From: Candidatus Latescibacterota bacterium
Lineage (GTDB): Bacteria; Latescibacterota; UBA2968; UBA8231
DNA: 64,000 nt
Assembly: GCA_964291625.2 (NCBI GenBank)
Contig: OZ220089.1
Location: forward strand, 3,456,001 to 3,520,000
Direction of reading: 5' to 3'
Shown here one piece after another: positions 9,202 to 32,977 of this stretch. The translations under genes were made by a program, and so were the position numbers. Positions within the stretch are counted from its first letter, which is position 1; every line of letters starts with the position of its first letter. Under the pieces are notes generated by a model that saw only the letters and a program-made list of their open reading frames with translations, searched no databases and was not told the DNA's origin.

Positions 9202-10737
9202 TCACAAGCGGGCTTGCACAAAGTCTCGTAGACCATCGAGTGCCGGGTGCTCCGGTGCTACGGCCCGCATCGTTCTACTTAGGCAATCAGAGGGCGGAAG
9301 GTTAGTACGCTGCCCCAAACAGTATCCCAGATCATGGTGGTCAAGGTCGGAGTGAATGGCATCGATCAGAGAATCCGCTTCCGCTCCGCGACAATCAAAC
9401 TGCTTGGCTAGCCGATCGCGGTAGCTTGGCAGTCTCAATTGCTCTGCGACCCACCTCTCTGGCGGCAAGCCTCCAGGCAGAAGCATGCACTCGGGCCTAA
9501 GTTCCTCCTTCCCTCCCGCCTCACTCTTGGCCACCTTCCCGACATCGCCCATGGAGCAATCACCATCAAGGACACACACGGCTCTCAGCTCAGACTCGGC
9601 CCTTAGGTGGGAGACACCCTGACGAACAACTGCCGCATGGTCACCTATCTCCCGCAGCGAAACTCGCACTCTCACCTTGTAGGGAAGAGCCTCCTCAATC
9701 AAACTCCTGGCGGCCTCGTCTTCGCAGTAGATCATCAGCTCGGGTATAGGTACTCCCGTCATCTCCTGCATGGCAAAGCGGGTACTCGGAGACTCAAATG
9801 CTTCATGCTCGTGGCCACGCTTGCTCAGGAGGATTCTGGATACACGCGGCAGTGCATCCAAGAAAGCCTCTGAGTGTGTTGAACAGATGACTTGCACTTG
9901 ACGCCTCAAACAGAGCCGGATTAGGATCCGCGCCAGTCGAATCTGTGCCTCAGGGTGCAATCCCGACTCGACCTCCTCGACCACCATCAGCCCTCCACGT
10001 GGCAGATTGTGTAGCGCGTGCAGCAGGTAGACCACACAACTCTCTCCACTTCCCATGTTGAAACTTGTGAACTCTACCCCACAAGATACGCGCTGCAATG
10101 TGTGCCGCCCGATCGTTTGTATTTGCGCCAAGCTGTATTCCCTTCCCATAATGTAAGAGAGGTCTTCCTTCTCCTCGGGCGTTAGCTCAAGAGTGGCCTC
10201 GCCTTCGCCCCGCTTCGAGAATGCCGCCCTCACGCCAGCTACTTCATAGGCTGGAACTACTCGACTCACGGGGAAAAAACCGACCTCGCGCTCCGGACGT
10301 GCTGTGTACCGGCCCCATCGACTAGCAGTCTTCCTGAAGCTGACCGGCTCCACAGGACTCGAGCCCCGATACTCCCATGCAATCCTAGTGCCTTCGAAAG
10401 GCTTCTCCTCTGAGCTACGATGGAGAAAGTCGCCGAAAGTGTAATAGGATCTGTCATCCCTTCTGCCGCGGGGCTGGTAGAACCAGTTTGGGATATGCCA
10501 GCCCGGCGGCGAATGGTACGCCAAGGCGGCGAGCGCCAGAATCGTGCTCTTGCCTACCCCGTTTCGGCCGCAAATGGCTGTAATCGGATAGCGAAAGGGT
10601 ACTAGGAGGCCCTCTATACCACGCAATCCGCCAGACACGGCAATGCTCGCCAGGTAGGGCCCGCAGGGATCACCAGGGGGGGTGCGCCACATATTCAGCA
10701 ACCCCCGCTCATCATCGTTCAAACGTCTACCCGGCAC
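9202..10737 (-). CDS. ABC-type ATPase + TOPRIM protein (OLD/GajA-like nuclease)
   Basis: GRNGVGKST, MGSGE, VEEVESGLHP, STHS; TOPRIM-like IYCED and VLDGD. Confidence 0.8.
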   Translation of the reverse strand: MPGRRLNDDERGLLNMWRTPPGDPCGPYLASIAVSGGLRGIEGLLVPFRYPITAICGRNGVGKSTILALAALAYHSPPGWHIPNWFYQPRGRRDDRSYYTFGDFLHRSSEEKPFEGTRIAWEYRGSSPVEPVSFRKTASRWGRYTARPEREVGFFPVSRVVPAYEVAGVRAAFSKRGEGEATLELTPEEKEDLSYIMGREYSLAQIQTIGRHTLQRVSCGVEFTSFNMGSGESCVVYLLHALHNLPRGGLMVVEEVESGLHPEAQIRLARILIRLCLRRQVQVICSTHSEAFLDALPRVSRILLSKRGHEHEAFESPSTRFAMQEMTGVPIPELMIYCEDEAARSLIEEALPYKVRVRVSLREIGDHAAVVRQGVSHLRAESELRAVCVLDGDCSMGDVGKVAKSEAGGKEELRPECMLLPGGLPPERWVAEQLRLPSYRDRLAKQFDCRGAEADSLIDAIHSDLDHHDLGYCLGQRTNLPPSDCLSRTMRAVAPEHPALDGLRDFVQARL

Positions 10738-13700
10738 TTAGTTCCTCCTCAACCATTACCATCTCCCGCACCCTCTCATCGTCCACTGAGGGTGGCCGGG
10801 GAGTGGTCTTGTCAACCTCCTTCCAGCGTTCATACCCCGGGCAAATCTCCCGAAAGTCGCACTTTCGACAACTGCCGTTCGACACGCCTCGGAGTGCAAA
10901 TTCCCCTGACCTCACCGCTCCTTGAATCTCCTGTACTGCCCTGCCGACTCGATCCCTGACAGATTCCCGTGCTTCCCTAGATACGTCTACACTCACTCTC
11001 TCGCTCACCCCCTCTTCAAGAAGACCTTGCGACGGGGGATTTGGGCTCAAGAAATGCGCATAGGCTGCCTCGGTATCCACGGGCCATGTATTTCCAACAG
11101 CAATTGCATACAGCCTCAACTGTGCTTCCACTTCTTGCCTGCGCAAGGTAAAGGTGTGCGCACTCTCCCAGCGGTGAGCCTTGAAATCGACAATTGCTAC
11201 GGGAATCCTCTGCCCTGCACCGCAGCCGTCGTGGTCTACTCGCTGTATCAGGTCAACTGTGCCACTGATCAGTGCCCCCGTGTCCCTATCGACAAACTCA
11301 AAAGGCTTCTCGGCATCCAGCACAAAGCGAGTACTCTCCGGGTAGCTCTCCAGGTACCGGGCTATGGATAGTCTAGCCGCCTCTCTAAGCTGACTCAGAG
11401 GCTTATACGCTTCCCCATCGCGCGTGTACCGCAGATGAAACCGCTGTTCAACCAAACGGCTGACTTCCCCAGCAGAGAGGTGGAGGCCCGTTCGCGCCCT
11501 CTGATGGATTTCAGCAAGGATATTGTGTATCTGTTGACCGTACCCGTATGACTCCCGAACTCCTGGCTCAAATCCCATGAGCGCCCTGAGCTGATATTCA
11601 AACGGGCACCGCCAGTAGTAATTCAACTCCGTATAGGTTGTAGGGAGCAATTCTGTACTGGCCGGTGGTGTAGGGCAACCCTTCGGGAGGTCTCTCGGTT
11701 CGTCGTCGCGTGCAACAATATCATGGCTGATTTCCTTGAAGTAGAGCGTTGGTCGCTTGTTCTTGCGATCTGGAGTCGAGACATTCAGGAACCGCCGGCA
11801 TCGAGTAAGCGCAACATACCACAATCTACGTTCTCCCTCGTCTCCGCTAGCGTATTGAGTTGGATCGAAAAGATCCACCGAGAGGAATGTTGAGGGCCCC
11901 CTGCGGCGCAAACTGCTGGGGAAGTTGGCGCTAGAGATTCTAGGCAAGAAGACTACTGGCCACTCAAGGCCCTTCGCAGCATGGACCGTCATGATCTGCA
12001 CCGCATTAGGTGTGGCGCCTTCATCTAGGCCCCCCTCGTCTACTTGGTTCGCCGCCCATCCGCCAAGGAAGAGACACAGCGCTTGGAGGTCACTAGGTCT
12101 TACCCACTGATGCACAGTCTCAAAGTCGGTTATGAGACCACTGAGGCGTCCCAGATTGAAAAGAACCTCGTTGGGCCATGGGGACTGACGCTCCCCGGAG
12201 CCTAACTGTTTGAGCATCTCCTGAAAAATGCTCTGCGGATAAATTCGTCGCGCCAGACGGCCTCTCCTGTCCCTCTCTAAGAGGCGGCGACTCAGCTCCT
12301 CCCGCTTGGCCGCAATCCACTCTAGGTACGTCGTCTCCCGAGCTTCCGGCATCGTCCCAACACTGCGGAGGTGACGTATCTGTTTACGGATGAACTCCCT
12401 AATCTCCACTTCTCCCAACCGCCTGGGTGCGCCTGAGTCACTGACAAGCATGTAGGATCTTGCCAAGAGACTAAAGGTTGCCTGTACCAAGAGGACTTCC
12501 GCGTGGTCGAACAAGCCCCCAACACCCTTGACTACCACCGGAATGCCCCGCTCCTGTAAGGTGTCCGCCAGGATTTTACCCGAGCTCTTCACACTCCTCA
12601 AGAGGATTGCCATGTCCGCAAAATCGATGGCCCTCGTCTGGTCTTCGCCCTCCTTCAGGACAACTCCTCTAAGTTCGAGAATCCGGTCCGCCACCCAGGT
12701 GGCCTCCGCCTCCTCTGTAGGTAGCGTGCGCACCCGAACATCCTTCGGCTCGGCCATGGTCTCAACGAAAGCACCAGCGGTCTGATCCCAGTGACGAGCC
12801 TCCATTTCCTTCTCTAACCGGTTTGTCGGGCCGATCCTCCGTACAGCGGCGTCGGCTATTTCCGCGATCGCGTGCGTGCTCCTAAAGTTGTATGTCAATT
12901 TGACTTGCTTCACATCAGCGTATCGCTGGTCAAAGCTCAGTATGTTCTGGATGCGCGCTCCCCTCCACCCATATATTGCTTGGTCATCGTCTCCAACCAC
13001 AGTCACAGAGACATCCTGGCCATGATTTGACAACAGTCCGATCAGTTCCTCCTGTCTGTCATCTATATCTTGATACTCGTCCACTACAAGATACTGGAGT
13101 CTGTCGCGCAACCTTTTGAGGAAGTCCGGTCGCTGCTTCAACTCCGCTATGAGTTTCCCAATGATCTGATCGAAGTCAAAGAAGAAATTGGGGCGGCCAT
13201 AGGCGATCTCCTGGTACCTTTCGATGGACTCCTTAAGGGGGTGATCAGTGATTTGATCTAGGTGGATTCCCCTCTGATGGACCACACTCACAGTGGCTAT
13301 GAAGGTTCGTATGGCCTCCCAGTATCTCTTGGATCTTGTGCGATGGGAGAGATAGTTCAGACCGATACCTGCGCCTGACGCTGGAAAGTGGTGATAATTG
13401 CTCATGATTAGGGCGGCTTGGCGGGACTCGTCCAGGACCTCATATCGGCGCCACCCCGAATCCATATCCTTCAGGATCTGGAGGCAGAAGCTGTGGATAG
13501 TGCCCACGTACATGTCCCCCAGAGCGGGATCTGTTGGGCAGGATTCCTCCAGATGAGTGCGGATCCTTCCTTTGAGTTCCTCCGCCGCTCTATCGGTGAA
13601 GGTGAAAGCGACCAAGGAGCCCTTGGGGACCCCCTCTGCCACCAAGTCGGCGATCCTTCTTGAGATGACCTCTGTCTTGCCACTTCCCGCGCAGGCCAGA

Positions 13701-13765
13701 ATTTGGAGGTTACCATGCCTGTGGCGGATGGCCGTTTGCTGTTCCTCCGTGTATGTGTACTTCAT
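10727..13765 (-). CDS. UvrD/SF1A helicase fused to a PD-(D/E)XK nuclease with Fe-S staple
   Basis: AGSGKT, VDEYQD, GDDDQAIYGWRGA, TVHAAKGLEW, YVALTR; then RCP, GTVDLI, IVDFK, QLRLYA, CRKCDFREIC. Confidence 0.9.
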   Translation of the reverse strand: MKYTYTEEQQTAIRHRHGNLQILACAGSGKTEVISRRIADLVAEGVPKGSLVAFTFTDRAAEELKGRIRTHLEESCPTDPALGDMYVGTIHSFCLQILKDMDSGWRRYEVLDESRQAALIMSNYHHFPASGAGIGLNYLSHRTRSKRYWEAIRTFIATVSVVHQRGIHLDQITDHPLKESIERYQEIAYGRPNFFFDFDQIIGKLIAELKQRPDFLKRLRDRLQYLVVDEYQDIDDRQEELIGLLSNHGQDVSVTVVGDDDQAIYGWRGARIQNILSFDQRYADVKQVKLTYNFRSTHAIAEIADAAVRRIGPTNRLEKEMEARHWDQTAGAFVETMAEPKDVRVRTLPTEEAEATWVADRILELRGVVLKEGEDQTRAIDFADMAILLRSVKSSGKILADTLQERGIPVVVKGVGGLFDHAEVLLVQATFSLLARSYMLVSDSGAPRRLGEVEIREFIRKQIRHLRSVGTMPEARETTYLEWIAAKREELSRRLLERDRRGRLARRIYPQSIFQEMLKQLGSGERQSPWPNEVLFNLGRLSGLITDFETVHQWVRPSDLQALCLFLGGWAANQVDEGGLDEGATPNAVQIMTVHAAKGLEWPVVFLPRISSANFPSSLRRRGPSTFLSVDLFDPTQYASGDEGERRLWYVALTRCRRFLNVSTPDRKNKRPTLYFKEISHDIVARDDEPRDLPKGCPTPPASTELLPTTYTELNYYWRCPFEYQLRALMGFEPGVRESYGYGQQIHNILAEIHQRARTGLHLSAGEVSRLVEQRFHLRYTRDGEAYKPLSQLREAARLSIARYLESYPESTRFVLDAEKPFEFVDRDTGALISGTVDLIQRVDHDGCGAGQRIPVAIVDFKAHRWESAHTFTLRRQEVEAQLRLYAIAVGNTWPVDTEAAYAHFLSPNPPSQGLLEEGVSERVSVDVSREARESVRDRVGRAVQEIQGAVRSGEFALRGVSNGSCRKCDFREICPGYERWKEVDKTTPRPPSVDDERVREMVMVEEELSAG

Positions 13766-14826
13766 TTCCGATCTCTCCCCAGGTATTGACGTAACTCTCT
13801 CGCCAAGTGAGCGATCAACCTGACAGGAACGGCATTTCCTATCTGGGCAGCAATGGCCTTGGCGCTGCCGTGGAATCTGTACTCGTCAGGGAAGGTCTGT
13901 AGCCGCGCCGCCTCCCGGAGTGTTAGGGCCCGATCGTCGCGGGGGTGGGCGAATCGTCCTCGTGTCAGATCTGTGCATCCTGTGGTTAAGGTCGGCGCCA
14001 CCATATCCCAACTCATCCGGCCATATACATCAGGGTGGCCCGTGTTGCCCTTGTGACAGTTCAGCTCAAGGCGGCTGGGTAAGCTCTCTCTGCTGCCACC
14101 ATCTTTAGGGATATGCTTCAGCCGCTCGATGGCCACTTGGCGGTGGTTTCTCGCAAAGTGCAGGCGGTCATTGGGATCCTCTTCGCCAGATAGCAGGGGT
14201 CTTAGGTCTGCGATGGCCGAACGGACTGTTGCTAGGGGCGCCGCCGGGTCCTCAGTTGGGAGCTTCGGGGGTATGTGTCCCTTAGTTGCTAGTAGAATTG
14301 ATCTAACTCGCCTTTGGGGTACGCCAAAGTCTGCTGCATTTATCTGCTTGTGGGCTCGGAAGCGATACCCGTGTGCTTTCAGCCCTCGCTCTAAGGTACG
14401 CAGCAGGGTTTGGAACCGGGCGGCAACTAGCCCAGGGACATTCTCGAGAAGGATCATCGACGGACTTAGGGCCTTAGCAAATCGAATGCTCTCCAGAATG
14501 AGGTTTGCGCGGGCGTCGTCTTCCGGGCATCGGAGTTGACTGCTAAAGGGCTGACAGGGAGCACAGACCACCATCAGGTCGAGACTCCTTGGTGCAAGGA
14601 GAGTGTTCTTGAGTTCCCATGGATCAATTTGGGTAATGTCTTCTGCGATGAGGCGTACCGTTGGGTGATTGGCGCCGTAAGTCTTGCAGGCCACGGGATC
14701 GTTGTCTACTGCTGCGATAATCTTGAACCGGGCAGACTTCAAGCCGGCTGTAGCGGCCCCACAACCGCAGAAGAGGTCCACGGCGGTAGGCCAGGGTTCC
14801 CCCTTTCTTGCGTGGCTAAGGGCCAT
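13762..14826 (-). CDS. dcm: DNA (cytosine-5)-methyltransferase
   Basis: DLFCGCG, PCQPFS, ENV, QRRVR, REAARLQTFPD, GNAVP. Confidence 0.95.
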   Translation of the reverse strand: MALSHARKGEPWPTAVDLFCGCGAATAGLKSARFKIIAAVDNDPVACKTYGANHPTVRLIAEDITQIDPWELKNTLLAPRSLDLMVVCAPCQPFSSQLRCPEDDARANLILESIRFAKALSPSMILLENVPGLVAARFQTLLRTLERGLKAHGYRFRAHKQINAADFGVPQRRVRSILLATKGHIPPKLPTEDPAAPLATVRSAIADLRPLLSGEEDPNDRLHFARNHRQVAIERLKHIPKDGGSRESLPSRLELNCHKGNTGHPDVYGRMSWDMVAPTLTTGCTDLTRGRFAHPRDDRALTLREAARLQTFPDEYRFHGSAKAIAAQIGNAVPVRLIAHLARELRQYLGRDRK

Positions 14827-15226
14827 CCAGGAATTGCTCCAGGCGTTTTTGTAGCATGAGTGGATCTCGTACCTCGCATTCCCAAATGATCAGAGTGCCC
14901 CATCCCAGCAGAAGCAAGTGTCGCTGGTGTCTCTCATCGCGAGCGAGGTTTCCGTCAAGCTTGACATTCCAGAACTCTCTGTTGGACATTGGACGCTTGG
15001 CGGAGGGACAGTTCTGGTGCTGATGCCAGAAACAGCCGTGAACGAAGATGGCCTTTCGGTGGCGGCTGAGAACAATGTCGGGTCGGCCCGGTAGGTTACT
15101 TTGGTGGAGGCGGAAGCGATACCCCATTCTGTGGATAAGGGAGCGCACGGCCTTCTCGGGACGGGTGTCTCGATCCCGAACCTGGGACATGATCTGGCTG
15201 CGCTTTCTTGCCGAGAAAATGTCCAT
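14816..15226 (-). CDS. vsr: Very short patch repair endonuclease
   Basis: MDIFSARKRSQIMS, LPGRPDIV, FVHGCFWHQH, IWECE. Confidence 0.95.
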   Translation of the reverse strand: MDIFSARKRSQIMSQVRDRDTRPEKAVRSLIHRMGYRFRLHQSNLPGRPDIVLSRHRKAIFVHGCFWHQHQNCPSAKRPMSNREFWNVKLDGNLARDERHQRHLLLLGWGTLIIWECEVRDPLMLQKRLEQFLDGP

Positions 15227-15489: not shown

Positions 15490-16419
15490 TCACGGGCGCA
15501 CCCGGAGGGCGGCTTTGATACGACCCCAGGATGACCGTTCCACGGCGGAAGCGTCGTCTTGGAGTGGATCCTCTCCGATGCCGACGAGCAAACCATCGAC
15601 GAAATGGCTCGCGAAAGTGTTGACGTTGAGTCCTAAGGGGGTCAGCAGGTACGGGAAGGAAGAGACAAAGGGTGGTTCCTCGTCAGCGTCGAAAAGACGG
15701 AGCTCGAATCCAATGATCTTGCCTGGGTACAGCTCCGAGACTCTGGAGTGGCTCTCGTCGTTGTAGACGAGGCGGTCGAATGGCGTCAACTTCATCTCAA
15801 GGACCCAGGTTGCCGGGCTGTGGCCGATAACTCCGCCACCCCCGGCAGCGTAGGGCGCCATCGTGTGCCACTCGCCAGCACCGGGGTAGCGGAGGGACTG
15901 GTCCTCCGGGTCGATCGGCATCCAGTACATTTGCGCTTGGCGGTAGTTCAACAGAGCAACCTCTTCCTCATCATCGTCGCCGCCAGAGAACTTCCGATAT
16001 CGGCCACCGGAGTGGTCGCCGTCGATGTAGAAGGCCATGCAGGCATCCCAAGTGGTGCAGGATTCCCAATCTTCTTTTCCGTCCCCAAGGTATCCGATGA
16101 AGCGATCATCGAAGGCTTCTACGGCGACCCAGAGGGTAGTGGTGTTCCGGTGCCACGCGAGCCAGACGCGGACATCCAGATTCTTTGGATCGCTGGGATA
16201 GTCGGCGTCGCCCTCCCAGAAGTCGGAGGTGACCAGGGACGGCTCGGAGGCGACCTCGAGCCAGTCCTCGACGCTGCCGTCGGTCAGGTCGATGCGGTCC
16301 AAGTCGTCGTCGAGGAGTTCGTAGAAGAGGTAGATTTCGTCCCCGGTGTGGGCGCGGGTGATGCTGGCGGGGGCCAAGGCGAGCAGCAAGAACAGCGAGT
16401 GAATAGTGCTTGGATGCAT
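15490..16419 (-). CDS. Secreted acidic protein, DOMON/CBM9-like, C-terminal SWGRIK motif (paralog 1)
   Basis: Signal peptide, IDLTDGSVEDW, DGDHSGG, PGKIIGF, SSWGRIKAALR; closest to paralog 6. Confidence 0.8.
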   Translation of the reverse strand: MHPSTIHSLFLLLALAPASITRAHTGDEIYLFYELLDDDLDRIDLTDGSVEDWLEVASEPSLVTSDFWEGDADYPSDPKNLDVRVWLAWHRNTTTLWVAVEAFDDRFIGYLGDGKEDWESCTTWDACMAFYIDGDHSGGRYRKFSGGDDDEEEVALLNYRQAQMYWMPIDPEDQSLRYPGAGEWHTMAPYAAGGGGVIGHSPATWVLEMKLTPFDRLVYNDESHSRVSELYPGKIIGFELRLFDADEEPPFVSSFPYLLTPLGLNVNTFASHFVDGLLVGIGEDPLQDDASAVERSSWGRIKAALRVRP

Positions 16420-16473
16420 TTCCTTCTCCTGCGAGAATGCGACTGGCATTGCTTGGAAGCATGCAGCGCGAAT

Positions 16474-16503
16474 TCTCCCCGGGGGCCAAGGCCCCCGGGG
16501 AGA
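16474..16503 (-). terminator. Hairpin 3' of precursor 1
   Basis: TCTCCCCGGGGGCC-AA-GGCCCCCGGGGAGA perfect inverted repeat. Confidence 0.65.
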
Positions 16504-16519
16504 GCATCAGACCAGCACC

Positions 16520-16810
16520 CTACCAGCACTTACACCGATAGTAGGGCGAGGATCCCAGTCGAACGCACGCCCAACCGCCACCGTCACACGGGGACGCATC
16601 GCAATCATCCTTGCACCAATAGGCATGGTGACTGTTGCAACCCCAGGCTCCCCAGCATGTATCGGCCTGCGCATCTTCAGGCATGCTCAAAACGACGGCC
16701 CCAGCCATCAGCACAGCGGCGACCCAGGCTACCGGCAGGATCGCCTGCTTCCTGACGCCGTCCTCGTTGGCGATAAAGCCGCCCACAACACTGCGGATCC
16801 GCCTCAACAT
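16520..16810 (-). CDS. Cys-rich defensin-like peptide precursor 1
   Basis: 49-aa leader ending AQA plus 47-aa core with 8 Cys; GGAGG RBS; two paralogs in the window. Confidence 0.9.
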   Translation of the reverse strand: MLRRIRSVVGGFIANEDGVRKQAILPVAWVAAVLMAGAVVLSMPEDAQADTCWGAWGCNSHHAYWCKDDCDASPCDGGGWACVRLGSSPYYRCKCW

Positions 16811-16920
16811 GACATTCCTCCCTCAGGAAGGTGGACTGCGTTGATCAAAAAAACCCTCTATCTCCACCCTGCTTTTTTCGCCAGCTACCTCCTCTCTGGG
16901 CCGCAGGGCGCTTTGCCCGT

Positions 16921-17970
16921 TCATCCGTTAAGCCACAGGAGCAGGGCCCTCAAGGGCGGGGCCAAGTGGCCGCCGAAGACGGCGGTGGCCAGCCCGCCGA
17001 GCACGAGGAAGGGGACGAATGGCATGGCTCGGACTAAAGCCACCGTCCCCGGCAGGTCGCCAGAGGTCTGGGTCTGGAGCAGGTTCACCCTCTCTTGATC
17101 GAGGCTCTCCCCGCTTTCCCAGATCACCTCTCCTCCATCGTCCTGGGCCAAGACCATCCGGTGCCGCAGGACCGCGCCAGGCCGAACCCGCCCCACCGGT
17201 AGGTCGTACCCGAAGGCCCCGCCGCTCCCTTGGCGCACCTGCTGAAAGGCCAGCTCTACCAACCACGCCGCCCCCCACATCAGGAGGTAGCGGCTCCAGC
17301 CGCCGGTCGACACGGCCAGCAGCGCGAGCGCCGCCAGCCCAGGAATCACCACCACCGGGCGCCTCTCCGGCTTCAGGCCCCATTCGAGCACGCGGTATCC
17401 CACGACGAGGAAGGTGAACGCTTCCAGGTAGGTCAAGGGGCGGTTGAGCACGAGCTGGGCGAAGCTCAGGGCCAGTCCGAGCAATCCCCCCAGCCCGGCG
17501 GCGGCCTGCAGCCATGGCCCCCGGTTTGCTTTAACGGACATCCATTGTCGTTGCCGCCAAGCCACCACCGCTAGCAGCACGGCGGCATAGGCCACCACCG
17601 CGTTGACAATCAGTGCCGCCGGGGAGGTCTCCAGGGAAACCCACTTCCCCACCGGGCACAGGCTGGGCGGCAGGGCCGCCACGACCGCCCAGTACATCTT
17701 GGCATCGCCCGGCGACCACACCCCCGTCAGCGTCAGCAGGACGGCGACGGCCAGCCCCAACAGGAGGGTCCCGGCCAACTGGCTCCCGCCGCCCACCCCC
17801 AGTCCCACCATCGCCACTTGGCCGGCCACGCCAATGCCGAGCAGCCCAAGGGTATAGCGGTTCGGCACCCGCTGGAACCGGAGGTCCGTGTAGGCGGCGC
17901 AGGTACCGGCCGTCAGGAACGCCGATAGCATGAGCAACTCTACCCAGAGCACAGGATCGCTCACCGACAC
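16921..17970 (-). CDS. A24 prepilin-type aspartic peptidase (TadV/FlaK-like), copy 1
   Basis: YTDLRFQRVPN and SPGDAK catalytic Asp motifs, C-terminal MPFVPFLVLG; GTG start overlaps the redoxin stop. Confidence 0.85.
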   Translation of the reverse strand: MSVSDPVLWVELLMLSAFLTAGTCAAYTDLRFQRVPNRYTLGLLGIGVAGQVAMVGLGVGGGSQLAGTLLLGLAVAVLLTLTGVWSPGDAKMYWAVVAALPPSLCPVGKWVSLETSPAALIVNAVVAYAAVLLAVVAWRQRQWMSVKANRGPWLQAAAGLGGLLGLALSFAQLVLNRPLTYLEAFTFLVVGYRVLEWGLKPERRPVVVIPGLAALALLAVSTGGWSRYLLMWGAAWLVELAFQQVRQGSGGAFGYDLPVGRVRPGAVLRHRMVLAQDDGGEVIWESGESLDQERVNLLQTQTSGDLPGTVALVRAMPFVPFLVLGGLATAVFGGHLAPPLRALLLWLNG

Positions 17971-18545
17971 GAGTCGCAGTCCTCGCCCATGGCCAGATCT
18001 TGCGCCAGCTTTCCAACCAGTTGCAGCACCGGTGCGGCGCCCCGGGCGGCGGCCACCACCGTGCCCTTCGAGTCGATCCGGTAGGCCGTGGGAACGCTGA
18101 CGGCGTAGTAAGCCAGGGAGGTTTGCCCCGTGGTATCCTGTAGCACGGGGTAGAGACCACGGATTCGCGCCTCGATGCTGCCCTCGGGCGGCTCCGGTGG
18201 CATACTGTCGTCGTCCGGACCGTGGATGAAGACCAAGCGCCCCTCTAGGTCGGGAAGCCCTGCGTCGACCAGGTTGGCCTTCAACTCGTTGCAGTACCGG
18301 CAGGTGGTGGTGACGAACACGAGAGCGGAGGTCCGGCCTTTCAGGTCGACCAACCCCAACCCGGGTCCTGCGACCCCGGGCAACTGGAAGTCGGGGGCGG
18401 GCGTGCCCTGGGGCAGTTGCTGCCACTTGCTGCGCGGCAGGCGCTGCAGCAGCGAGCCTCCCGGACCGTCCACGACGACCAGAGCCCACGTCAGGGCCAG
18501 GGCCAGCAGGCCGCCGGCCACGAGGGAGGGTTTGTGCACCACCAT
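17961..18545 (-). CDS. Membrane-anchored TlpA/MauD-like redoxin B, copy 1
   Basis: TM anchor, GTPAPDF, CRYC, SVPT cis-Pro loop; C-terminal CDSC. Confidence 0.85.
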   Translation of the reverse strand: MVVHKPSLVAGGLLALALTWALVVVDGPGGSLLQRLPRSKWQQLPQGTPAPDFQLPGVAGPGLGLVDLKGRTSALVFVTTTCRYCNELKANLVDAGLPDLEGRLVFIHGPDDDSMPPEPPEGSIEARIRGLYPVLQDTTGQTSLAYYAVSVPTAYRIDSKGTVVAAARGAAPVLQLVGKLAQDLAMGEDCDSCR

Positions 18546-18547
18546 AC

Positions 18548-19105
18548 TCAGTCCTGCCTCTCCACAGGGGCGAGCATCCTCTCCAGGTCCCGGCTGCCCA
18601 CGGCGCCCTTGCGCACGACACCCTGGGAGTCAATCAGCAGTACCGAGGGGTAGCCCGGTACGCCGTAGGCTTGGTTCACCTCCCGAAGACGGTCGTGGCC
18701 GGCCTCCGAGGCAAGGCCGTACGGTACCAGCTTCTCATTGAGCACCGACCCCTCTCCCACGCCGACGACGACCACGGGGACTTGCTCGGAAGCCAGGGCG
18801 AGGGCCGGGTACGTGGCGTCGCAGGCCGGGCAGGTGGCGTCAGCGAAAAACAGAAGCCAGGATCGCCCCGCCGGCGCATCATCCGAGGAAACCGTGCCGC
18901 CTTGCAGGCCGTCGAGTGCGAAGGCAGGGGCGGGTTGGCCGATCAGCCGGGCAAAAGGCGCGGGAGTGACGCCGGGCGGGAAGCCGGTGTCGTACCGGGC
19001 CGCGAAGGCCACCAAAGCGGCCAAGAGGATGCCCGATCCCAAGGCCGTTGCGAACACCGAGGGCGGCACGTCGCCGTTGGGTCGCTCTCTCCGGGTTTCT
19101 TGCAT
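18548..19105 (-). CDS. Membrane-anchored TlpA/MauD-like redoxin A, copy 1
   Basis: TM anchor, GQPAPAF, CPAC, GYPSVLLID. Confidence 0.85.
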   Translation of the reverse strand: MQETRRERPNGDVPPSVFATALGSGILLAALVAFAARYDTGFPPGVTPAPFARLIGQPAPAFALDGLQGGTVSSDDAPAGRSWLLFFADATCPACDATYPALALASEQVPVVVVGVGEGSVLNEKLVPYGLASEAGHDRLREVNQAYGVPGYPSVLLIDSQGVVRKGAVGSRDLERMLAPVERQD

Positions 19106-19278: not shown

Positions 19279-19670
19279 CAGTCGGTGTTGCCCGACAGGA
19301 CCACCTGGGGTGTCACGACCTTTTGCGCAGGGCCGCCTCCAGCGGCGCCGGGGGTCCGCATCTTGACCAAGACCTTCGTCTCGAATTCGAGCCTCGCCGA
19401 GAATCCTCAGGTACCCTTGGCTGGGCCGGGCGTAGCAGGTGAGGCGCAGCGGTGCTCGCAGCCGCACTAGGGCTTCACGTCGAACCGGAAGCCGACCTCC
19501 GGCGAGGGGTTCTCGGCCAGGATCGAGCGGCTGGCATCCATCAGGTTCTGTTGGGGGCGCGCTCCTCGCCGGGCTCGGCCGGGTCTAGGTGCAGGGGCTC
19601 TAAGCGGTTGGTCTCCCAGGGTGTTGAAGCCGACACGCCACCCCCTCTTGGCGGCCGGCCGCGCCGCCAT
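19279..19670 (-). pseudogene. Degraded 5' part of the PA0069-type radical SAM gene
   Basis: Aligns by eye to about 36309-36724 (KRG...GFNT, DASRSILAENPSPEVGFRF); stop codon and frameshifts. Confidence 0.85.
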
Positions 19671-19844
19671 GCCCCACAGCTTGCCCCTCCGGCGCCTAGG
19701 CCTCGTATTTCGCCCGAAGGGCACTTCCCGTGTCCACGCGTCAAGGATAGCACCCTTCACCAGAAAGGGCACAGCCTCTACTTCTGCGCAATGCCTAGCT
19801 GCGCGAATCTTGGTGTCTCTCAACAAGTGCAAGAAGAAGCCGGA

Positions 19845-22676: not shown

Positions 22677-23672
22677 CTACCATTCCACGGCCTCCAGTCC
22701 CGCCAGGGCCTTGCCTTCCCTGGCCTCGATGTCCTGGAGCCGGGACTGAATGCGGGGCAGGAGGCTGGCCGGCTCCTTGAGGGCCCCCTTGAGGCACAGG
22801 CTCTTCACGACGAACCAGCCCTGGGAGATCGTCCCGAGCTCGGCGCCGAGCGCTGCCAGGCCGGGCTGGTCGAAGAGCCGGCCCACGTGGCCCAGGAACC
22901 GGCCATGCCCTTCCCGGAGCACGGCGATCTCCAGCAGCAGCCGCGCGCAGTGCTGCAGGTGGCTTCGCAGGAGAGCGTCCTCACGCCTCGCCCAGGCCCC
23001 GGTATCCGCCGCGAGCTGCCGGATCCCCTCCAGGCCCATCACCAGGCCCGCCTGTCCCCGGGTGGCCGACATGCTCCGGAGGTTGCGGCGCAGGAGGCCC
23101 TGAAGGGGGGCGCGGCGCAGGGAGGGAGGCTGCGCCGGCGCCCGCAGCCAGGTCCAGTTGTAGCGGCCGCGCACCCCGGAGAAGGCGCTCATGTCCCAGG
23201 AGGCGAGGAACAGGCCGAGGGGAATGTCCCGCGCGGAGGGCTGCCAGGGCGACGGATCGATGAGGTGGACGGTGCCCGGCGGGTCGTCGTACCCGGCGGC
23301 GATGTACTGGTGGTCGGCATGGCGCAGGCGGGGATAGAGGCCGGCCCGGGCGAGGGCGAAGACGTCGACGTTGACGGCCACCGGGGTACCGGCGTCGAGC
23401 AGCGATCTCACGGCCTTCCACGCGGCCTCGGGGTCCGCCGCGGCGCGGTGGAAGAGGCCGATCCCGAAGGCGCCGAGCATCGTCGGAAGGGGGATGGCGC
23501 GGCCGTCGATGGCGAAGCGTCCCTCCTCCCGGAGGTAGAGGAAGTCCCAGTTGGAGAAGCAGGGCACGGTGGGCTCGTGGCCGTGGAAGCGCAGCAGACT
23601 GTCGAGCACCACGTAGACGCAGTTGTAGTGCCGGTTGGCGCAGAAGGGAATGCCGGTGATCCGCTGGCTCAT
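22677..23672 (-). CDS. BtrH-like (papain-fold N-terminal/DUF4872-like) protein
   Basis: HYNCV, GTPVAVNVD...LY, HADHQYIAAGYD, HLIDP, GLEGIRQLA. Confidence 0.7.
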   Translation of the reverse strand: MSQRITGIPFCANRHYNCVYVVLDSLLRFHGHEPTVPCFSNWDFLYLREEGRFAIDGRAIPLPTMLGAFGIGLFHRAAADPEAAWKAVRSLLDAGTPVAVNVDVFALARAGLYPRLRHADHQYIAAGYDDPPGTVHLIDPSPWQPSARDIPLGLFLASWDMSAFSGVRGRYNWTWLRAPAQPPSLRRAPLQGLLRRNLRSMSATRGQAGLVMGLEGIRQLAADTGAWARREDALLRSHLQHCARLLLEIAVLREGHGRFLGHVGRLFDQPGLAALGAELGTISQGWFVVKSLCLKGALKEPASLLPRIQSRLQDIEAREGKALAGLEAVEW

Positions 23673-24304: not shown

Positions 24305-24311
24305 GGAACCC

Positions 24312-28009: not shown

Positions 28010-28300
28010 CTATGGCCAGCCACATCGGCAACGCTTCAACCCCGATGAACCATAGGGGACGCACCCGGAAGACCAAGAGTAGCAGCTGGTATTGCACGAG
28101 GAAGTGCAAATTGAGGGGCTGGTGTTGTAGCACCAAGCTGCCCAGCAATAGTCGGCATGGGCCTTTTCAGGCATGCTCACCACGACAGCGGCGGCCATCA
28201 TCACGGCACCGACCCAGGCCAAGGGCAGGATCGCCTGCTTCCTGACGGCGTCCTCACTGGCGACGAAGCCGCCCACAAGGTCACGAAACTTCTTCAACAT
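28010..28300 (-). CDS. Cys-rich defensin-like peptide precursor 2
   Basis: Leader ends AHA; 8-Cys core; GAGGAG RBS. Confidence 0.9.
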   Translation of the reverse strand: MLKKFRDLVGGFVASEDAVRKQAILPLAWVGAVMMAAAVVVSMPEKAHADYCWAAWCYNTSPSICTSSCNTSCYSWSSGCVPYGSSGLKRCRCGWP

Positions 28301-28406: not shown

Positions 28407-29030
28407 TCATCCATTGAGCCATGCAATCAACGCCCTCAACGGCGGGGCGAGGTGGCCGCCAAAGGCGGCGGTGGCCAGCCCGCCGAGCACGAGGAAGGGG
28501 ACGAAGGGCAGGGCCCGGGCCAACTCCACCGTCTCAGGCAGGTCGCCCGAGGCCGTCCCCTTCTGAATCAGATTCGCCCCCTGCTGGTCGAGGCTCTGCC
28601 CGCTCTCCCAGACCATCTCCGCCCCATCGTCCCCGGCCAGCCCCATCCGGTGCCGCAGCACCGCTCCCGGCCGAAGCCGCCCCACCGGCAGCTCGTACCC
28701 GTAGGCCCGCCCGCTCCCGTGCCGCAGCTGCTGAAAGGCCAGCTCCACCAGCCACGCCGCCCCCCAGATGAGGGCATAGTCCTTCCAGCCGCCGGTCGAC
28801 ACGGCCAGCACCGCGAGAGCCGCCAGCCCGGGAATCACCACCACCGGACGCCTCTCCGGCTTCAGGCCCCACTCCAGCAGGCGGTATCCCACGACGAGAA
28901 AGGCGAAGGCCTCCAGGTAGCTCAGGGGCCGGTTCAGCACGAGCTGGGCGAAGCCGAAGCGGTTGGGGGTGTTGAAGCCGGCGGCGCGGCCCCTCTTGCC
29001 GGGAGGCCGGGGCGTGGCGGGGTCGGGCAT
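28407..29030 (-). pseudogene. Chimeric ORF: radical SAM N-terminal 25 aa fused in frame to the C-terminal half of the A24 peptidase
   Basis: MPDPATPRPPGKRGRAAGFNTPNRF + GFAQLVLNRPLSYLEAF...; both catalytic Asp motifs are absent. Confidence 0.85.
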
Positions 29031-29069
29031 GGGGGCGGTCTGGGTTTGGGGGGGGGGCGCCGGATAATG

Positions 29070-29087
29070 GTGTATATGTGTGCAGTA
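29070..29087 (-). promoter_or_regulatory. LexA/SOS-box-like motif
   Basis: TACTG-CACACATATA-CAC, shared with 36759-36776. Confidence 0.4.
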
Positions 29088-29126
29088 TACGGCGGAGGGG
29101 AACCGGAACAAGCGGGGGGCAGCGGC

Positions 29127-30062
29127 TCAGGGACGCACCCGGAGGGCGGCCTTGATGCGGCCCCAGGAGGACGGCGCAACGGCGGAAGTGTTGTCGTAGC
29201 GGGAGGGGTCTTCCCCGGCGCCGATGAGCAAGCCATCGACGAAGAAATCGGCGTTGGTCAGTGCCTCCAACTTGGCGGTTAGCGACAGAAGGATCGACAC
29301 CCCAGACCCATCCGTCGCCTGAGTAACGTCGTTGTCCGTCGTGTCTATCGAGAACCCGAGAGTCTTGCCCGGGTAGAGCTTCGATGCTTCGGAGGCTTCC
29401 TCGTCGTTGTAGATGAGATCGTCGAAGGGAGTCACCTTGAACTCGGTGACCGTGGTCGCCGGGGTCTCGCCAATGACGCCGCCGCCAGCGGCGGCGTACG
29501 GCTCTCTGATCACCCACTCGCTGGCCCCGCCATGGTGCAAATGGTCGCCGTCGGGCGTCTCGGCGATTGCGACCCACTCTTGGGCCTGACGGTTGTTCTC
29601 AAGGACTTGGTCGGCCGTGCAGCCCTCGCAGTTGAACCCGAGAAGGTAGCTGTATGGCCCACCGCTGTGGTCGCCGTCGACCATGAAGCTGATGCTGGAA
29701 TCCCACCAGTGCATCTTCCAGGGTTCGTCCCCGTCGTAGCGGTTGAAGTAGAGGTCATCGAAGCGCTCCATGGCGACCCAGAGGGTACTGCTGCTCTGGT
29801 TCCATGCGAGCCAGATGCGGAAGTCCACTTCCGATGGATCGTATGAATGAAACTCCCAGATGAAGTCGCTGGCCGTCACCGAGGGCTCCCCGACGACCTC
29901 GAGCCAGTCCTCGACGCTGCCGTCGTTCAGGTCGATGTGGTCCAGGTCCTCGTCGAGGAGCTCGAAGAAGGGGTAGACTTGGTCGCCGATGTGGGCGTGG
30001 GTGCTGGGGGGGAGGGTTAGTATCGGGCTTAAGGTCAGGAGGGAAACGAGGCAGGTGCGCAT
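29127..30062 (-). CDS. Secreted SWGRIK-family protein (paralog 4)
   Basis: AAGGAG RBS, signal peptide, CEGC insert, SSWGRIK. Confidence 0.85.
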   Translation of the reverse strand: MRTCLVSLLTLSPILTLPPSTHAHIGDQVYPFFELLDEDLDHIDLNDGSVEDWLEVVGEPSVTASDFIWEFHSYDPSEVDFRIWLAWNQSSSTLWVAMERFDDLYFNRYDGDEPWKMHWWDSSISFMVDGDHSGGPYSYLLGFNCEGCTADQVLENNRQAQEWVAIAETPDGDHLHHGGASEWVIREPYAAAGGGVIGETPATTVTEFKVTPFDDLIYNDEEASEASKLYPGKTLGFSIDTTDNDVTQATDGSGVSILLSLTAKLEALTNADFFVDGLLIGAGEDPSRYDNTSAVAPSSWGRIKAALRVRP

Positions 30063-30084
30063 GGTGCTTCTCCTTAGTGACGCC

Positions 30085-30152
30085 GAAGATCCCAAATGTG
30101 GTCGAGGTCCTCGGCGGGGAACTCGTAGGAGGGTAGATCGTCGCGGATGTGA
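30085..30152 (-). pseudogene. N-terminal remnant of a SWGRIK-family gene
   Basis: HIRDDLPSYEFPAEDLDHI resembles HIGDEIYPFYELLDEDLDHI. Confidence 0.5.
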
Positions 30153-30401: not shown

Positions 30402-30689
30402 CTACCACCCACATCGGCACCGATACGTGCCCGATGAACCATACTGGACACATCCGGAAGAGTAGACCTTGCAGTATTTTCCGCAGACGTAAGGACAGGG
30501 TGAGGGACTGACGTTGTAGCAGTCCACCGCCACCCAGCAATAAGCATCGGCCTTTGCGGGCATGCTTAGCACGACAGCAGCCGCCATCATCACGGCACCG
30601 ACCCAGGCCACAGGCAGGATCGCCTGCTTCCTGCCAACGTCCTCGCTAGCGATGAAGCCGCCCAGAAGACTGCGCACCTGCTTCAACAT
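30402..30689 (-). CDS. Cys-rich defensin-like peptide precursor 3
   Basis: Start MLKQ chosen by homology; leader ends ADA; 8-Cys core. Confidence 0.9.
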   Translation of the reverse strand: MLKQVRSLLGGFIASEDVGRKQAILPVAWVGAVMMAAAVVLSMPAKADAYCWVAVDCYNVSPSPCPYVCGKYCKVYSSGCVQYGSSGTYRCRCGW

Positions 30690-30786
30690 GATTCTTCCTC
30701 CTATGGAAGTGAACTGCATCAGTCCTAGAATTCTCCACGCGGCGACATGTCGTTTACCTCCTCTCTGGGCCGCAGGGGGGTGTAAT

Positions 30787-31839
30787 TCATCCGTTGAGCC
30801 ACACGAGCAAGGCCCTCAACGGCGGGGCCAAGTGCCCTCCGAAGGCGGCGGTAACCAGCCCGCCGAGCACGAGGAAGGGGACGAAGGGCAGGGCCCGCGC
30901 CAGCTCCACCGTCCCGGGCAGATCGCCAGAGGCCGCCCGCTTCTGCAGCAGGTGCACCCTGTCTTGGTCGAGGCTCTGCCCGCTCTCCCAAGTCACCTCC
31001 GCCCCATCGTCCCCGGCCAGGACCAACCGGTGCCGCAGGACCGCTCCGGGCCGAACCCGCCCCACCGGCATCTCGTACCCGTAGGCCCGCCCGCTCCCGT
31101 GCCGCACCTGCTGAAAGGCCAGCTCCAACAGCCACGCCACCCCCCAGATCAGGGCATAGTCCTTCCAGCCGCCGGTCGACACGGCCAACAGCGCCAGGGC
31201 CGCCAGCCCGGGGATCATTACCACCGGACGCCTCTCCGGCTTGAGGCCCCACTCCAGCAGGCGGTATCCCACGACGAGGAAGGCGAAGGCTTCCAGGTAG
31301 CTCAAGGGGCGGTTGAGCACGAGGTGGGCGAAGCTCAGGGCCAAGCCGAGCAGGCCTCCCAGCCCGGCGGCGGCCTGCAGCCATGGCCCCCGGTTTCCCT
31401 TGGCGGACATCCACTGACGCTCTCGCCAAACCACGACCGCCAGAAGCACGGCGACGTAGGCCACCACGGCGTTGGCAATCAGCGCCGCCGGAGGGGTTTC
31501 CAGAGAGACCCATTCGCCCACCGGGCACAGGCTCGGCGGCAGGGCGGCCACGGCCGCCCAGTACATCTTGGCGTCGCCCGGCGACCAGACTCCCGCCAGC
31601 ATCAGCAGGAGCGCCACCCCCAGCCCCAGGAGCAGGGTCCCCGCCACCTGGTTCCAGCCGCCCACGCCCAGTCCCACCATCGCCGCCTGGCCGGTCACGC
31701 CGACCCCGAGCAGCCCGAGGGTGTAGCGGTTCGGCACCCGCTGGAACCGGAGGTCCGTCCAGGCCGCACAGATCCCGGCCGTCAGCAACGCCGACAGCAT
31801 CACCAGCTCCACCCAGAGAATGGGGTCGCCTAGGGACAC
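30787..31839 (-). CDS. A24 prepilin-type aspartic peptidase, second intact copy
   Basis: WTDLRFQRVPN, SPGDAK, LPFVPFLVLG. Confidence 0.85.
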   Translation of the reverse strand: MSLGDPILWVELVMLSALLTAGICAAWTDLRFQRVPNRYTLGLLGVGVTGQAAMVGLGVGGWNQVAGTLLLGLGVALLLMLAGVWSPGDAKMYWAAVAALPPSLCPVGEWVSLETPPAALIANAVVAYVAVLLAVVVWRERQWMSAKGNRGPWLQAAAGLGGLLGLALSFAHLVLNRPLSYLEAFAFLVVGYRLLEWGLKPERRPVVMIPGLAALALLAVSTGGWKDYALIWGVAWLLELAFQQVRHGSGRAYGYEMPVGRVRPGAVLRHRLVLAGDDGAEVTWESGQSLDQDRVHLLQKRAASGDLPGTVELARALPFVPFLVLGGLVTAAFGGHLAPPLRALLVWLNG

Positions 31840-32411
31840 GACCGGCACTCCTCGTCCAAGGCCACGTCCTCGGCCAGTTCCTCGACCAGTTCCTGGACCG
31901 GCCCCACGCCCCGGGCCGCCGCCGCCACCGTGCCCTCCGGGTCGAGGCGGTAGGCCGTGGGCACGCTGACGGCGTAGTAGGCCAGCGACGTCTCTCCCGT
32001 GGTGTCCAGCAGCACGGGGTAGAGGCGGCGGATCCGGGCCTCGACGCCGTCCTCGGTCGTCTCTGCGGACGGACCGTCGTCCGGACCGTGGATGAAGACC
32101 AGGCGGCCCCCCAGGTCAGGCAGCCCGGCGTCGAGCAGATTCGCCTTCAGGTCGTTGCAGTATTGGCAGGTGGTGGTGACGAAGACGAGAGCGGAAGTCC
32201 GGCCCTTCAGGTCGGCCAGTTCCAACCCCGGCCCGGCGATCCCGGCCAGTTGGAAGTCGGGAGCGGGGGTGCCCCGGGGCAGTTGCTGCCACTGGCTGCG
32301 CGGCAGCCGGTTCAGCAGGGAGCCCGGCGGACCGTCCACGGCGACCAGGGCCCCGGTCAGGGCGAGGGCCAGCAGGCCGCCGGCCAGGAGAGAGGGTCTG
32401 TGCGCCGCCAT
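31830..32411 (-). CDS. Redoxin B, copy 2
   Basis: CQYC, SVPT, C-terminal CRSC; paralog of 17961-18545. Confidence 0.85.
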   Translation of the reverse strand: MAAHRPSLLAGGLLALALTGALVAVDGPPGSLLNRLPRSQWQQLPRGTPAPDFQLAGIAGPGLELADLKGRTSALVFVTTTCQYCNDLKANLLDAGLPDLGGRLVFIHGPDDGPSAETTEDGVEARIRRLYPVLLDTTGETSLAYYAVSVPTAYRLDPEGTVAAAARGVGPVQELVEELAEDVALDEECRSCP

Positions 32412-32413
32412 GC

Positions 32414-32977
32414 TCAGTCCTGCCTCTCCGCAAGGGCGAGCACCTGCTCCAGGCCCTGGCTGCCCACCGCGCCCTTGCGCACCACGCCCTGCGGATCGAT
32501 CAAGAGCACCGAGGGGTAGCCCGGCACGCCGTAGGCCTGGTTCACCTCCCAGCGGCGGTCGTGGCCGGCGACCGGGACCAGGCCGTGCGGGGCCAGCTTC
32601 TCCTGAAGGACCGCCCGGTCGCCCGCGCCGACGACGATGACGGGGTATCGCTCGGAGACCCGGGCGAGGGCGGGGTAGGTGGCGTCGCAGGCCTGGCAGG
32701 AGGCCTCTGCGAAGAACAGGAGCCATGATCGCCCCGCCGGCGCATCGTCCGAGGACACGGTGGGGCCCTGGAGGCCGTCGAGGGTGAAGGCGGGGGCGGG
32801 CTGGCCGAGCAGGTGGGCAAAAGGCGGGGGCGTGATCCCGGGCGGGTAGCCGGTCTCGAGCCGGGCGGCCACGGCCACCAGGGAGGCCAGGAGGAGGCCC
32901 GATCCCAGGGCCGCGCCGAAGACGCTCGGGGGGACGCTGTCGTTGCCAGCAGATCCTTGGTCCCGGGCTTCGTCCAT
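32414..32977 (-). CDS. Redoxin A, copy 2
   Basis: CQAC, GYPSVLLID; paralog of 18548-19105. Confidence 0.85.
   Translation of the reverse strand: MDEARDQGSAGNDSVPPSVFGAALGSGLLLASLVAVAARLETGYPPGITPPPFAHLLGQPAPAFTLDGLQGPTVSSDDAPAGRSWLLFFAEASCQACDATYPALARVSERYPVIVVGAGDRAVLQEKLAPHGLVPVAGHDRRWEVNQAYGVPGYPSVLLIDPQGVVRKGAVGSQGLEQVLALAERQD

Follow-up and report, generated by a model that had tools for sequence, protein, structure and literature searches.

A Flp-leader-like segment stacked on a signal peptidase I-type signal in small Cys-rich precursors encoded beside an A24-like peptidase

The DNA analyzed here is a 64-kb stretch (64,000 nucleotides, 68% G+C; referred to throughout as the window) of contig OZ220089.1 from a Candidatus Latescibacterota bacterium, whose minus strand carries at 16520-16810 an open reading frame (ORF) of 96 amino acids (aa) that begins MLRRIRSVVGGFIANEDGVRKQAILPVAWVAAVLMAGAVVLSMPEDAQA and continues into a core with eight Cys residues. 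An earlier note on this DNA had proposed that positions 16664-16810 encode a bipartite leader, in which a segment resembling the leaders of Flp prepilins, possibly cleaved by a prepilin peptidase of family A24, is stacked on a signal peptidase I signal. This segment is real: it corresponds exactly to residues 1-49 of the precursor, which can be written as MLRRIRSVVGGFIANEDG / VRKQ / AILPVAWVAAVLMAGAVVLSM / PEDAQA, and it is borne out by its coordinates, the ORF, a Shine-Dalgarno sequence (GGGAGG, 6 nt 5' of the ATG) and its conservation in 43 relatives. A six-frame regular expression scan of the whole window returned this ORF and exactly two paralogs, no others, and both of these have strong Shine-Dalgarno sites and the leader variants that had been quoted for them. 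The parts of the first precursor and the two paralogs are as follows.

16520..16663, minus strand: residues 50-96 and stop codon; eight-Cys core with CxxxC...CxC, predicted beta-alpha-beta-beta (defensin-like)
16664..16756, minus strand: residues 19-49; basic linker VRKQ, 21-residue hydrophobic helix with L-P-V-A-W, and C-terminal region of the signal (c-region) P-E-D-A-Q-A
End of the 16664..16756 segment, minus strand: Ala49, proposed signal peptidase I site
16757..16810, minus strand: residues 1-18, putative cytoplasmic N-terminal extension ending F-I-A-N-E-D-G (Flp-leader-like); Gly18 is the proposed A24 site
28010..28300, minus strand: paralogous precursor 2, 96 aa; leader motif F-V-A-S-E-D-A, reading FVASEDAVRKQ
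30402..30689, minus strand: paralogous precursor 3, 95 aa; leader motif F-I-A-S-E-D-V-G, reading FIASEDVGRKQ

A conserved two-part leader on a variable Cys-rich core

The window peptides have no match in NCBIfam, all three have none in Pfam at E values up to 0.1, and an Atlas search with leader residues 1-49 gave no usable match. A word-indexed search of 5.8 billion proteins found 32 relatives among 35 candidates, all of them small proteins. These were combined with the matches to a leader profile (see below) and with peptides adjoining distant A24 genes into an alignment of 43 sequences, after the chimeric P0013, the truncated or frameshifted P0030-P0032, and P0006 and P0021 had been left out.

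Glu16 is invariant in this alignment (43/43) and Phe occupies position 12 in 39 of the 43 sequences, while position 15 is Ser in 32 and Asn in eight, and position 18 is Gly in 38, Ala in three, Val in one and Thr in one, with a Gly directly after the Val and the Thr. The next part of the leader has L25 in 40/43, P26 in 38/43 and W29 in 43/43, and its end has P44 in 40/43, A47 in 40/43 (Val or Ser in the others) and A49 in 43/43. The consensus across the relatives is thus F-x-x-[SN]-E-x-G, followed later by P-x-x-A-x-A. The earlier note had named the conservation of the E-D-G/E-D-A position among homologs as a point on which its proposal could fall, and these counts show that the position is conserved. 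Its description of the RK-hydrophobic-AxA segment as a normal signal also agrees with the alignment, as the segment has canonical signal peptidase I features and an invariant Ala at -1. The spacing is similarly regular, with 4-6 residues between Gly18 and the fully hydrophobic, uncharged helix in 42 of the 43 sequences; the intervening linker carries a net positive charge in 39, and acidic residues mark the c-region.

Residues 12-49 have a mean pairwise identity of 0.59, versus 0.21 for the non-Cys positions of the core, and conservation falls right after Ala49, from which we conclude that the leader is conserved and the core hypervariable, with the break at Ala49. The motif is kept even in relatives whose A24 gene is just 36-52% identical, and the leader pattern is not due to chance. 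In two precursors (L017 and L019) the motif occurs twice in tandem (L-L-T-S-E-S-G-I-V-Q-P-F-L-A-N-E-S-G-F), and several others have 15-28 extra N-terminal residues, showing that the extension varies in length while the motif is fixed. A Tat signal was considered and rejected, since the RR of MLRRIRS is not conserved and the paralogs have KK and KQ.

The idea that this is a modular leader reused with different cores did not hold up. A leader-only profile, built from residues 1-49 of six sequences and run against 1.84 billion representatives at E <= 0.001, found 15 proteins, of which 13 are 67-134 aa in length and have the same layout of leader plus Cys-rich core. The two long ones, P0097 and P0102, are tandem-repeat translations and were rejected as relatives. 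Based on these matches, the leader is not found on unrelated cores.

As the earlier note had suspected, the end of the first part of the leader resembles a Flp-type leader. A real Flp prepilin, encoded on pSymA of S. meliloti (locus L038), has a leader ending F-A-R-N-E-S-G before ATAIEYGLIAG, and is the same as the F-I-A-N-E-D-G of the window peptide at -7 (F), -4 (N), -3 (E) and -1 (G); the leaders of distant relatives of the window peptide end F-L-A-N-E-S-G or F-F-L-N-E-S-G. Judged against this one real Flp sequence and the general features of the family, the geometry of the leader appears similar. The two differ after the Gly, where the ATAIEY of Flp precedes the hydrophobic stretch, whereas the equivalent six residues in the window are VRKQAI, a basic pair taking the place of the acidic/aromatic pair. 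The Flp motif, G/XXXXEY, and the role of TadV are described in PMC10934763. Position +5 is never Glu and +6 is never Tyr or Phe in any of the 43 relatives, so the statement that the pilin Glu+5 is absent holds throughout, and, as there is also no match to a Pfam pilin model, the peptide does not belong to the Flp family (PF04964).

The core comprises 47 residues with eight Cys, including CxxxC and CxC. In an AlphaFold2 (AF2) model of the precursor, computed from the 43-sequence alignment with a mean predicted local distance difference test score (pLDDT) of 73, residues 2-13 form a helix, residues 14-24 (including E-D-G-V-R-K-Q) are disordered and residues 25-41 form a second helix, while the core has beta strands at 52-56, 80-84 and 91-95 and an alpha helix at 65-72, with a pLDDT of 78-88 per 10-residue block. 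We consider a defensin-like (cysteine-stabilized alpha-beta, CSalpha-beta) fold for this predicted core a reasonable lead, rather than a result. The CSalpha-beta regular expression of PMC11561630 fits 37 of the 43 sequences, and is permissive for Cys-rich sequences. When the model was compared with 48,161 chains by VIA-align, plant defensins and brazzein were at the top and none reached Z 5, the best rows being 2mz0 (Z 4.2, root-mean-square deviation 3.9, 48 aligned) and 7lns (Z 4.1, root-mean-square deviation 2.7, 44 aligned); the best plant defensin rows span Z 4.2-3.9, and unrelated helical rows score alike for the leader part. Foldseek with the peptide model gave no match at E <= 0.001, the Pfam AtDEF-like model matched five of the 43 members (best E 0.00099), and a profile search of the PDB gave Defensin-like protein 32 at E 0.15.

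The A24 cassettes of the window and their relatives

The precursor genes stand in cassettes with genes for an A24-like membrane protein, two TlpA-like proteins and secreted proteins related to CBM9. The window has two full cassettes (15490-19105 and 30402-32977) and one decayed cassette between them, in which the C-terminal half of the A24 gene survives (28407-28958). The genes other than those of the precursors are listed below.

15490..16449, minus strand: CBM9-like secreted protein, 319 aa, downstream of the peptide; ordinary signal peptide
16921..17970, minus strand: cassette 1 peptidase A24-like membrane protein, 349 aa; PF01478 match; GTG start overlaps the end of the upstream TlpA-like gene
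17961..18545, minus strand: TlpA/ResA-like membrane-anchored thioredoxin-fold protein; C-R-Y-C motif
18548..19105, minus strand: second TlpA/ResA/DsbE-like thioredoxin-fold protein; C-P-A-C motif
25938-26867 and 26922-27848, minus strand: two CBM9-like secreted paralogs; Atlas lead for 25938-26867
28407..28958, minus strand: truncated A24-like gene of the middle cassette; C-terminal half alone (residues 171-353), catalytic N-terminal half missing
29127..30095, minus strand: CBM9-like secreted paralog
30787..31839, minus strand: cassette 3 peptidase A24-like protein (P0033, 350 aa form); PF01478 33.5 bits, cut-off 26.5
31830..32411, minus strand: cassette 3 TlpA-like protein; C-Q-Y-C
32414..32977, minus strand: cassette 3 second TlpA-like protein; C-Q-A-C
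33328-34224 and 34326 to about 35249, minus strand: two CBM9-like secreted paralogs

The A24 gene of cassette 1 lies about 110 bp upstream of the peptide ORF on the same strand, and D29 and the [S/A]-P-G88-D89-x-K91 motif (GxGD type) of its product are invariant in 21 homologs, down to 42% identity. In line with the A24 cleavage that the earlier note inferred, a peptidase with intact catalytic Asp residues is encoded beside the peptide. Both Asp residues would be on the cytoplasmic side, judging from the basic loop after the first transmembrane segment (LRFQRVPNR). The sole NCBIfam match of the A24 protein is archaeal EppA, which is weak (E 0.0053 and 0.00023) and far below the cut-off. An AF2 model of this protein from 21 sequences was too poor for a fold search (mean pLDDT 55.7), and sequence and profile searches of the PDB with it returned no A24 structure, only chance rows.

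The order TlpA-TlpA-A24-peptide-CBM9-like was found in all five loci taken from genome contigs (labelled Candidatus Latescibacterota or Gemmatimonadaceae metagenome-assembled genomes, MAGs), three of which (L002, L004 and L005) have apparent frameshifts or truncations. In a phylum-wide search, an A24-like gene was present in 32 of 168 genomes. We inspected 21 loci with an A24 gene at least 36% identical (L008-L023, with L013 taken wider as L039, and L040-L044), and 19 of them have a motif-bearing peptide beside or within 1.5 kb of the A24 gene. Such A24-peptide loci usually also encode two TlpA-like CxxC oxidoreductases and CBM9-like secreted proteins.

Type IV filament genes were sought by profile in the window genome (5.9 Mb in two contigs, 95% complete). 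The T2SSE/PilB/TadA ATPase family (PF00437), Flp_Fap and N_methyl had no match there, and the PF01478 matches were two, of 37.5 and 32.7 bits, both of them the cassette genes. Five further cassette genomes (92-97% complete) gave the same picture: none had a T2SSE match above the cut-off (two had 19-bit sub-threshold rows), and their ten A24 matches were all cassette genes. Flp_Fap was likewise absent from all 168 genomes of the phylum. Controls in reference genomes were positive for T2SSE in 13 of 14, for A24 in 12 of 14 and for Flp_Fap in 1 of 14, indicating that the ATPase and A24 searches were sensitive. The A24 enzyme here is outside any type IV filament system, a point on which six genomes agree, with the proviso that absence from a MAG is never proof. 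The lack of detectable filament machinery in turn suggests that the peptide is not a pilin and that the A24 enzyme acts as a dedicated leader peptidase.

The CBM9-like proteins, of about 310 aa, were named from the Atlas, where their nearest clusters are CBM9_1 clusters; 37%, 13% and 94% of the members of the top three carry the family, which we take as a lead only. These proteins have ordinary short signal peptides ending A-H-A, and no conserved E-x-G motif was seen by eye in the TlpA-like proteins. The six CBM9-like paralogs of the window share an N-terminal H-x-G-D-E-I-Y-x-F-Y-E-L-L-D-E-D-L-D block and a C-terminal S-S-W-G-R-I-K-A-A-L motif, and the family has at least 368 homologs, with arrays of up to seven or more copies in relatives (L005).

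Fragments of a radical SAM gene lie beside the cassettes. In front of the truncated A24 ORF (28407-29111, minus strand), and in the same frame, stands a copy of the ~25 N-terminal residues of a PA0069-family radical SAM protein, the full gene for which is at 35639-36724, and a similar fragment is found at 19467-19832 (minus strand), just upstream of cassette 1. This suggests that the cassette spread by segmental duplication, dragging neighboring sequence along. The link that the earlier note drew to His-Xaa-Ser radical SAM loci is not supported here, as the sole radical SAM gene of the window belongs to the PA0069 family (478.8 bits). TIGR03978, which we take to be the HxsB-type model, scored 63.5 bits in the window genome against a cut-off of 370, at a distant place. 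A ribosomally made peptide that is modified after translation (RiPP) with radical SAM tailoring was rejected on similar grounds, as the cassette encodes no tailoring enzyme and the radical SAM gene nearby is of the PA0069 family.

Two other groups of genes were noted on the minus strand of the window. The block at 9202-15226 looks, from its ORF translations, like a defence/restriction island, encoding an ATPase-like protein (511 aa), a UvrD-type helicase (1012 aa) whose C-terminal part is nuclease-like, a protein resembling cytosine-5 DNA methyltransferases (354 aa) and a Vsr-like endonuclease (136 aa). At 22677-25286, in the stretch that separates cassette 1 from the second cassette array, a GT4 glycosyltransferase has a BtrH_N/DUF4872 protein (Pfam 50.3 and 31.4 bits) as its neighbor.

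A proposed two-step maturation and its alternatives

The stacking of an A24 site on a signal peptidase I signal, the core of the earlier proposal, is unproven, and is in our view the best available reading of the leader. We tentatively favor, with a confidence somewhat short of even, a two-step maturation in which the A24 enzyme would cut after Gly18 and signal peptidase I after Ala49, and the TlpA-like pair would oxidize the core. In the pathway we infer, the precursor would enter the inner membrane and keep its N-terminus on the cytoplasmic side. Prepilin peptidases act on that side, according to PMC10191384, and the net positive linker and acidic c-region fit an N-in topology. Residues 1-18, ending F-I-A-N-E-D-G, would then be recognized by the GxGD, two-aspartate A24 enzyme of the same operon, which would most probably cleave behind Gly18 at the cytoplasmic face. 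Residues 19-49 would serve as a Sec-type signal, and a housekeeping signal peptidase I would most probably cleave it behind Ala49; genes for S26 signal peptidase I are present elsewhere in the window genome. The 47-residue core would thereby be released into the periplasm, where the two membrane-anchored TlpA-like CxxC proteins may form or shuffle its four disulfides. The purpose of the cytoplasmic cut may be to keep the precursor tethered at an A24/TlpA platform while it folds, or to clear a long leader. We tentatively prefer tethering to the gating of export that had been suggested, based on the conserved sequence of the helix itself (L-P-V-A-W).

Several observations weigh against this two-step scheme. 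None of the 43 members matches the Pfam Flp_Fap, N_methyl or class III signal models, even at E values up to 10. The Gly at -1 is replaced by Ala in three of the 43 and by Val or Thr, with the Gly shifted by one place, in two, and both window paralogs are among these exceptions; classical A24 enzymes tolerate replacement of this Gly poorly. The 21-residue hydrophobic region (h-region) appears long for a signal peptidase I substrate, and the scheme lacks an established reason for cutting one leader twice. There are also A24 genes without the peptide. At L040 and L042, both from one genome, the A24 gene is flanked only by CBM9-like arrays, with neither a Cys-rich peptide nor a TlpA-like gene inside 3.7 kb, and a distant group of A24-like genes (~30% identity, L024-L037) has TlpA-like neighbors and no such peptide within 1.5 kb; an exception in this group, L025, has a 56-aa ORF with F-T-S-D-S-G and a helix, without the Cys-rich core. 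These loci imply that the enzyme may have another or an additional substrate. The neighbors in this distant group are a membrane protein of 207 aa that has a CxxC-like motif, a TlpA-like protein and an activator of the sigma-54 type, and L032 has a 267-aa, 14-Cys secreted protein in place of the small peptide.

The alternative that survives best, unlikely as we consider it, is that signal peptidase I alone matures the peptide and that the A24 enzyme later clips the left-over 49-residue leader in the manner of a signal-peptide peptidase, or only docks the leader and leaves the full precursor uncut, with the motif as a recognition handle. The invariant, canonical AxA site speaks for such a scheme, as does a long h-region with a helix-breaking Pro near its cytoplasmic end (P26), and release of the core does not logically need a cytoplasmic cut. 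The GxGD catalytic type of A24 enzymes is also that of eukaryotic signal peptide peptidase. However, the motif matches true Flp leaders with the Gly at the cleavage position, suggesting that the classical bond is cut, and no bacterial A24 enzyme is known to act as a signal-peptide peptidase, nor was one found in the literature searched (full text, with subscription journals outside its coverage).

The earlier note had also offered a membrane-anchored, pilin-like display protein, in which A24 removes residues 1-18, the AxA site stays uncut and the Cys-rich head is tethered in the periplasm. The strong conservation of the 21-residue helix, reminiscent of the alpha1N helix of pilins, the adjacent A24 gene and the lollipop-like shape of the AF2 model, a helix with a small globular head, would suit this option, but an uncleaved tether has no obvious need for an Ala at -1 in 43/43, an Ala, Val or Ser at -3 in 43/43 and a Pro at -6 in 40/43. 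Together with the lack of Glu+5 in every relative, of a filament ATPase and of Flp or N-methyl pilins in the window genome, and of type IV filament machinery in all six cassette genomes, this invariant site weakens the display option to the point that we regard it as improbable.

We give still less credence to a cut at a second site against the helix, at [KR]-x-[G/A/S] before [I/L/F]-(L)-P-V-A-W (after Ala23), which would follow the archaeal class III pattern and make the upstream S-E-x-G part of the recognized leader. Distant relatives do read R-R-G-L-P-V-A-W, K-Q-G-F-P-V-A-W or R-T-G-L-P-V-A-W where the close family reads K-Q-A-I-L-P-V-A-W, and the EppA match of the A24 protein, weak as it is, points the same way. 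The small residue at this site (Gly, Ala or Ser) is nevertheless less constant than the E-x-G, small residues are common at helix borders, and the match to the real Flp leader is at the upstream site.

Equally doubtful is a coincidental resemblance, with the A24-like protein serving a CBM9-like or TlpA-like protein or a non-proteolytic role and the peptide having just a long N-terminal region (n-region) on a normal signal: the A24 genes with CBM9-like arrays or TlpA-like neighbors and no peptide, and the absence of any pilin model match, would agree with this, but the CBM9-like proteins have ordinary signals and the TlpA-like proteins no conserved E-x-G, a Glu that never varies and a Gly and Phe that hardly do, down to 36% A24 identity, would not be retained in an ordinary n-region, and the catalytic Asp residues are invariant.

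Significance and comparison with known systems

A24 peptidases are taken to mark type IV filament systems, which include pili, type II secretion, competence pili and archaella. The presence of a dedicated A24 gene beside a leader-bearing peptide in apparently pilus-free bacteria points to a new job for this enzyme family. Neither Pfam, NCBIfam nor the literature searched contains a description of such a leader/A24/peptide system, and nothing in that literature connects A24 or prepilin peptidases with a peptide that is defensin-like or otherwise not part of a filament. It is possible, and a broader proposal that we hold more loosely than the two-step maturation, that A24 was co-opted for the two-sided maturation of bacterial defensin-like peptides, with a cytoplasmic A24 cut, a periplasmic signal peptidase I cut and a leader helix that holds the precursor at the A24/TlpA platform while its four disulfides are formed, in a lineage that lost or never had type IV filaments. 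If true, no bacterial class of A24 substrates without relation to a filament, and no secretion leader combining class III and class I signal features, would have preceded it, and it would mean that an A24 enzyme together with its leader can be separated from filaments and put to use in the maturation of peptides. The cassette also offers a simple two-gene system for studying substrate choice by A24 enzymes, and exposes a family of disulfide-rich, possibly antimicrobial bacterial peptides that would be missed by pipelines which discard predicted transmembrane segments.

A close parallel is with Flp and its TadV/CpaA peptidases, in which the leader likewise ends in F-x-x-[N/S/D]-E-x-G with a hydrophobic helix starting some six residues further on, and a short A24 peptidase without a methyltransferase domain is encoded beside its substrate. 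The window family differs from these systems in having a signal peptidase I site after the helix and an eight-Cys globular cargo, and the window genome yielded neither a TadA-type ATPase nor any other filament gene. The archaeal class III non-pilus substrates of PibD and EppA also have a class III-like leader on a protein with no obvious role as a filament subunit, and the window A24 enzyme has a weak match to EppA in its C-terminal part. Such archaeal substrates still depend on type IV filament-like assembly systems, whereas the window family lacks an ATPase of this kind and has a second, signal peptidase I-type site.

With ordinary Sec/signal peptidase I signals the window family shares basic residues before the hydrophobic core, a Pro at -6, a small residue at -3 and an Ala at -1. 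It differs from them in its conserved cytoplasmic extension of 18-40 residues, with the invariant Glu and near-invariant Gly, and in an h-region of 21 residues that is conserved in sequence (L-P-V-A-W), unlike that of ordinary signals.

For the core, the relevant comparison is with the bacterial cis-defensins of PMC11561630, the available portion of which describes 74 members in five classes, from Proteobacteria, Acidobacteria and Actinobacteria only. Its pipeline dropped sequences with predicted transmembrane segments and, going by that portion, would have excluded the window family. The same portion mentions no dedicated A24/TlpA cassette. Most bacterial classes typically have six Cys, versus eight in the window core. 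What the two groups have in common is a small secreted peptide with CxxxC...CxC, and the topology predicted for the window core is beta-alpha-beta-beta.

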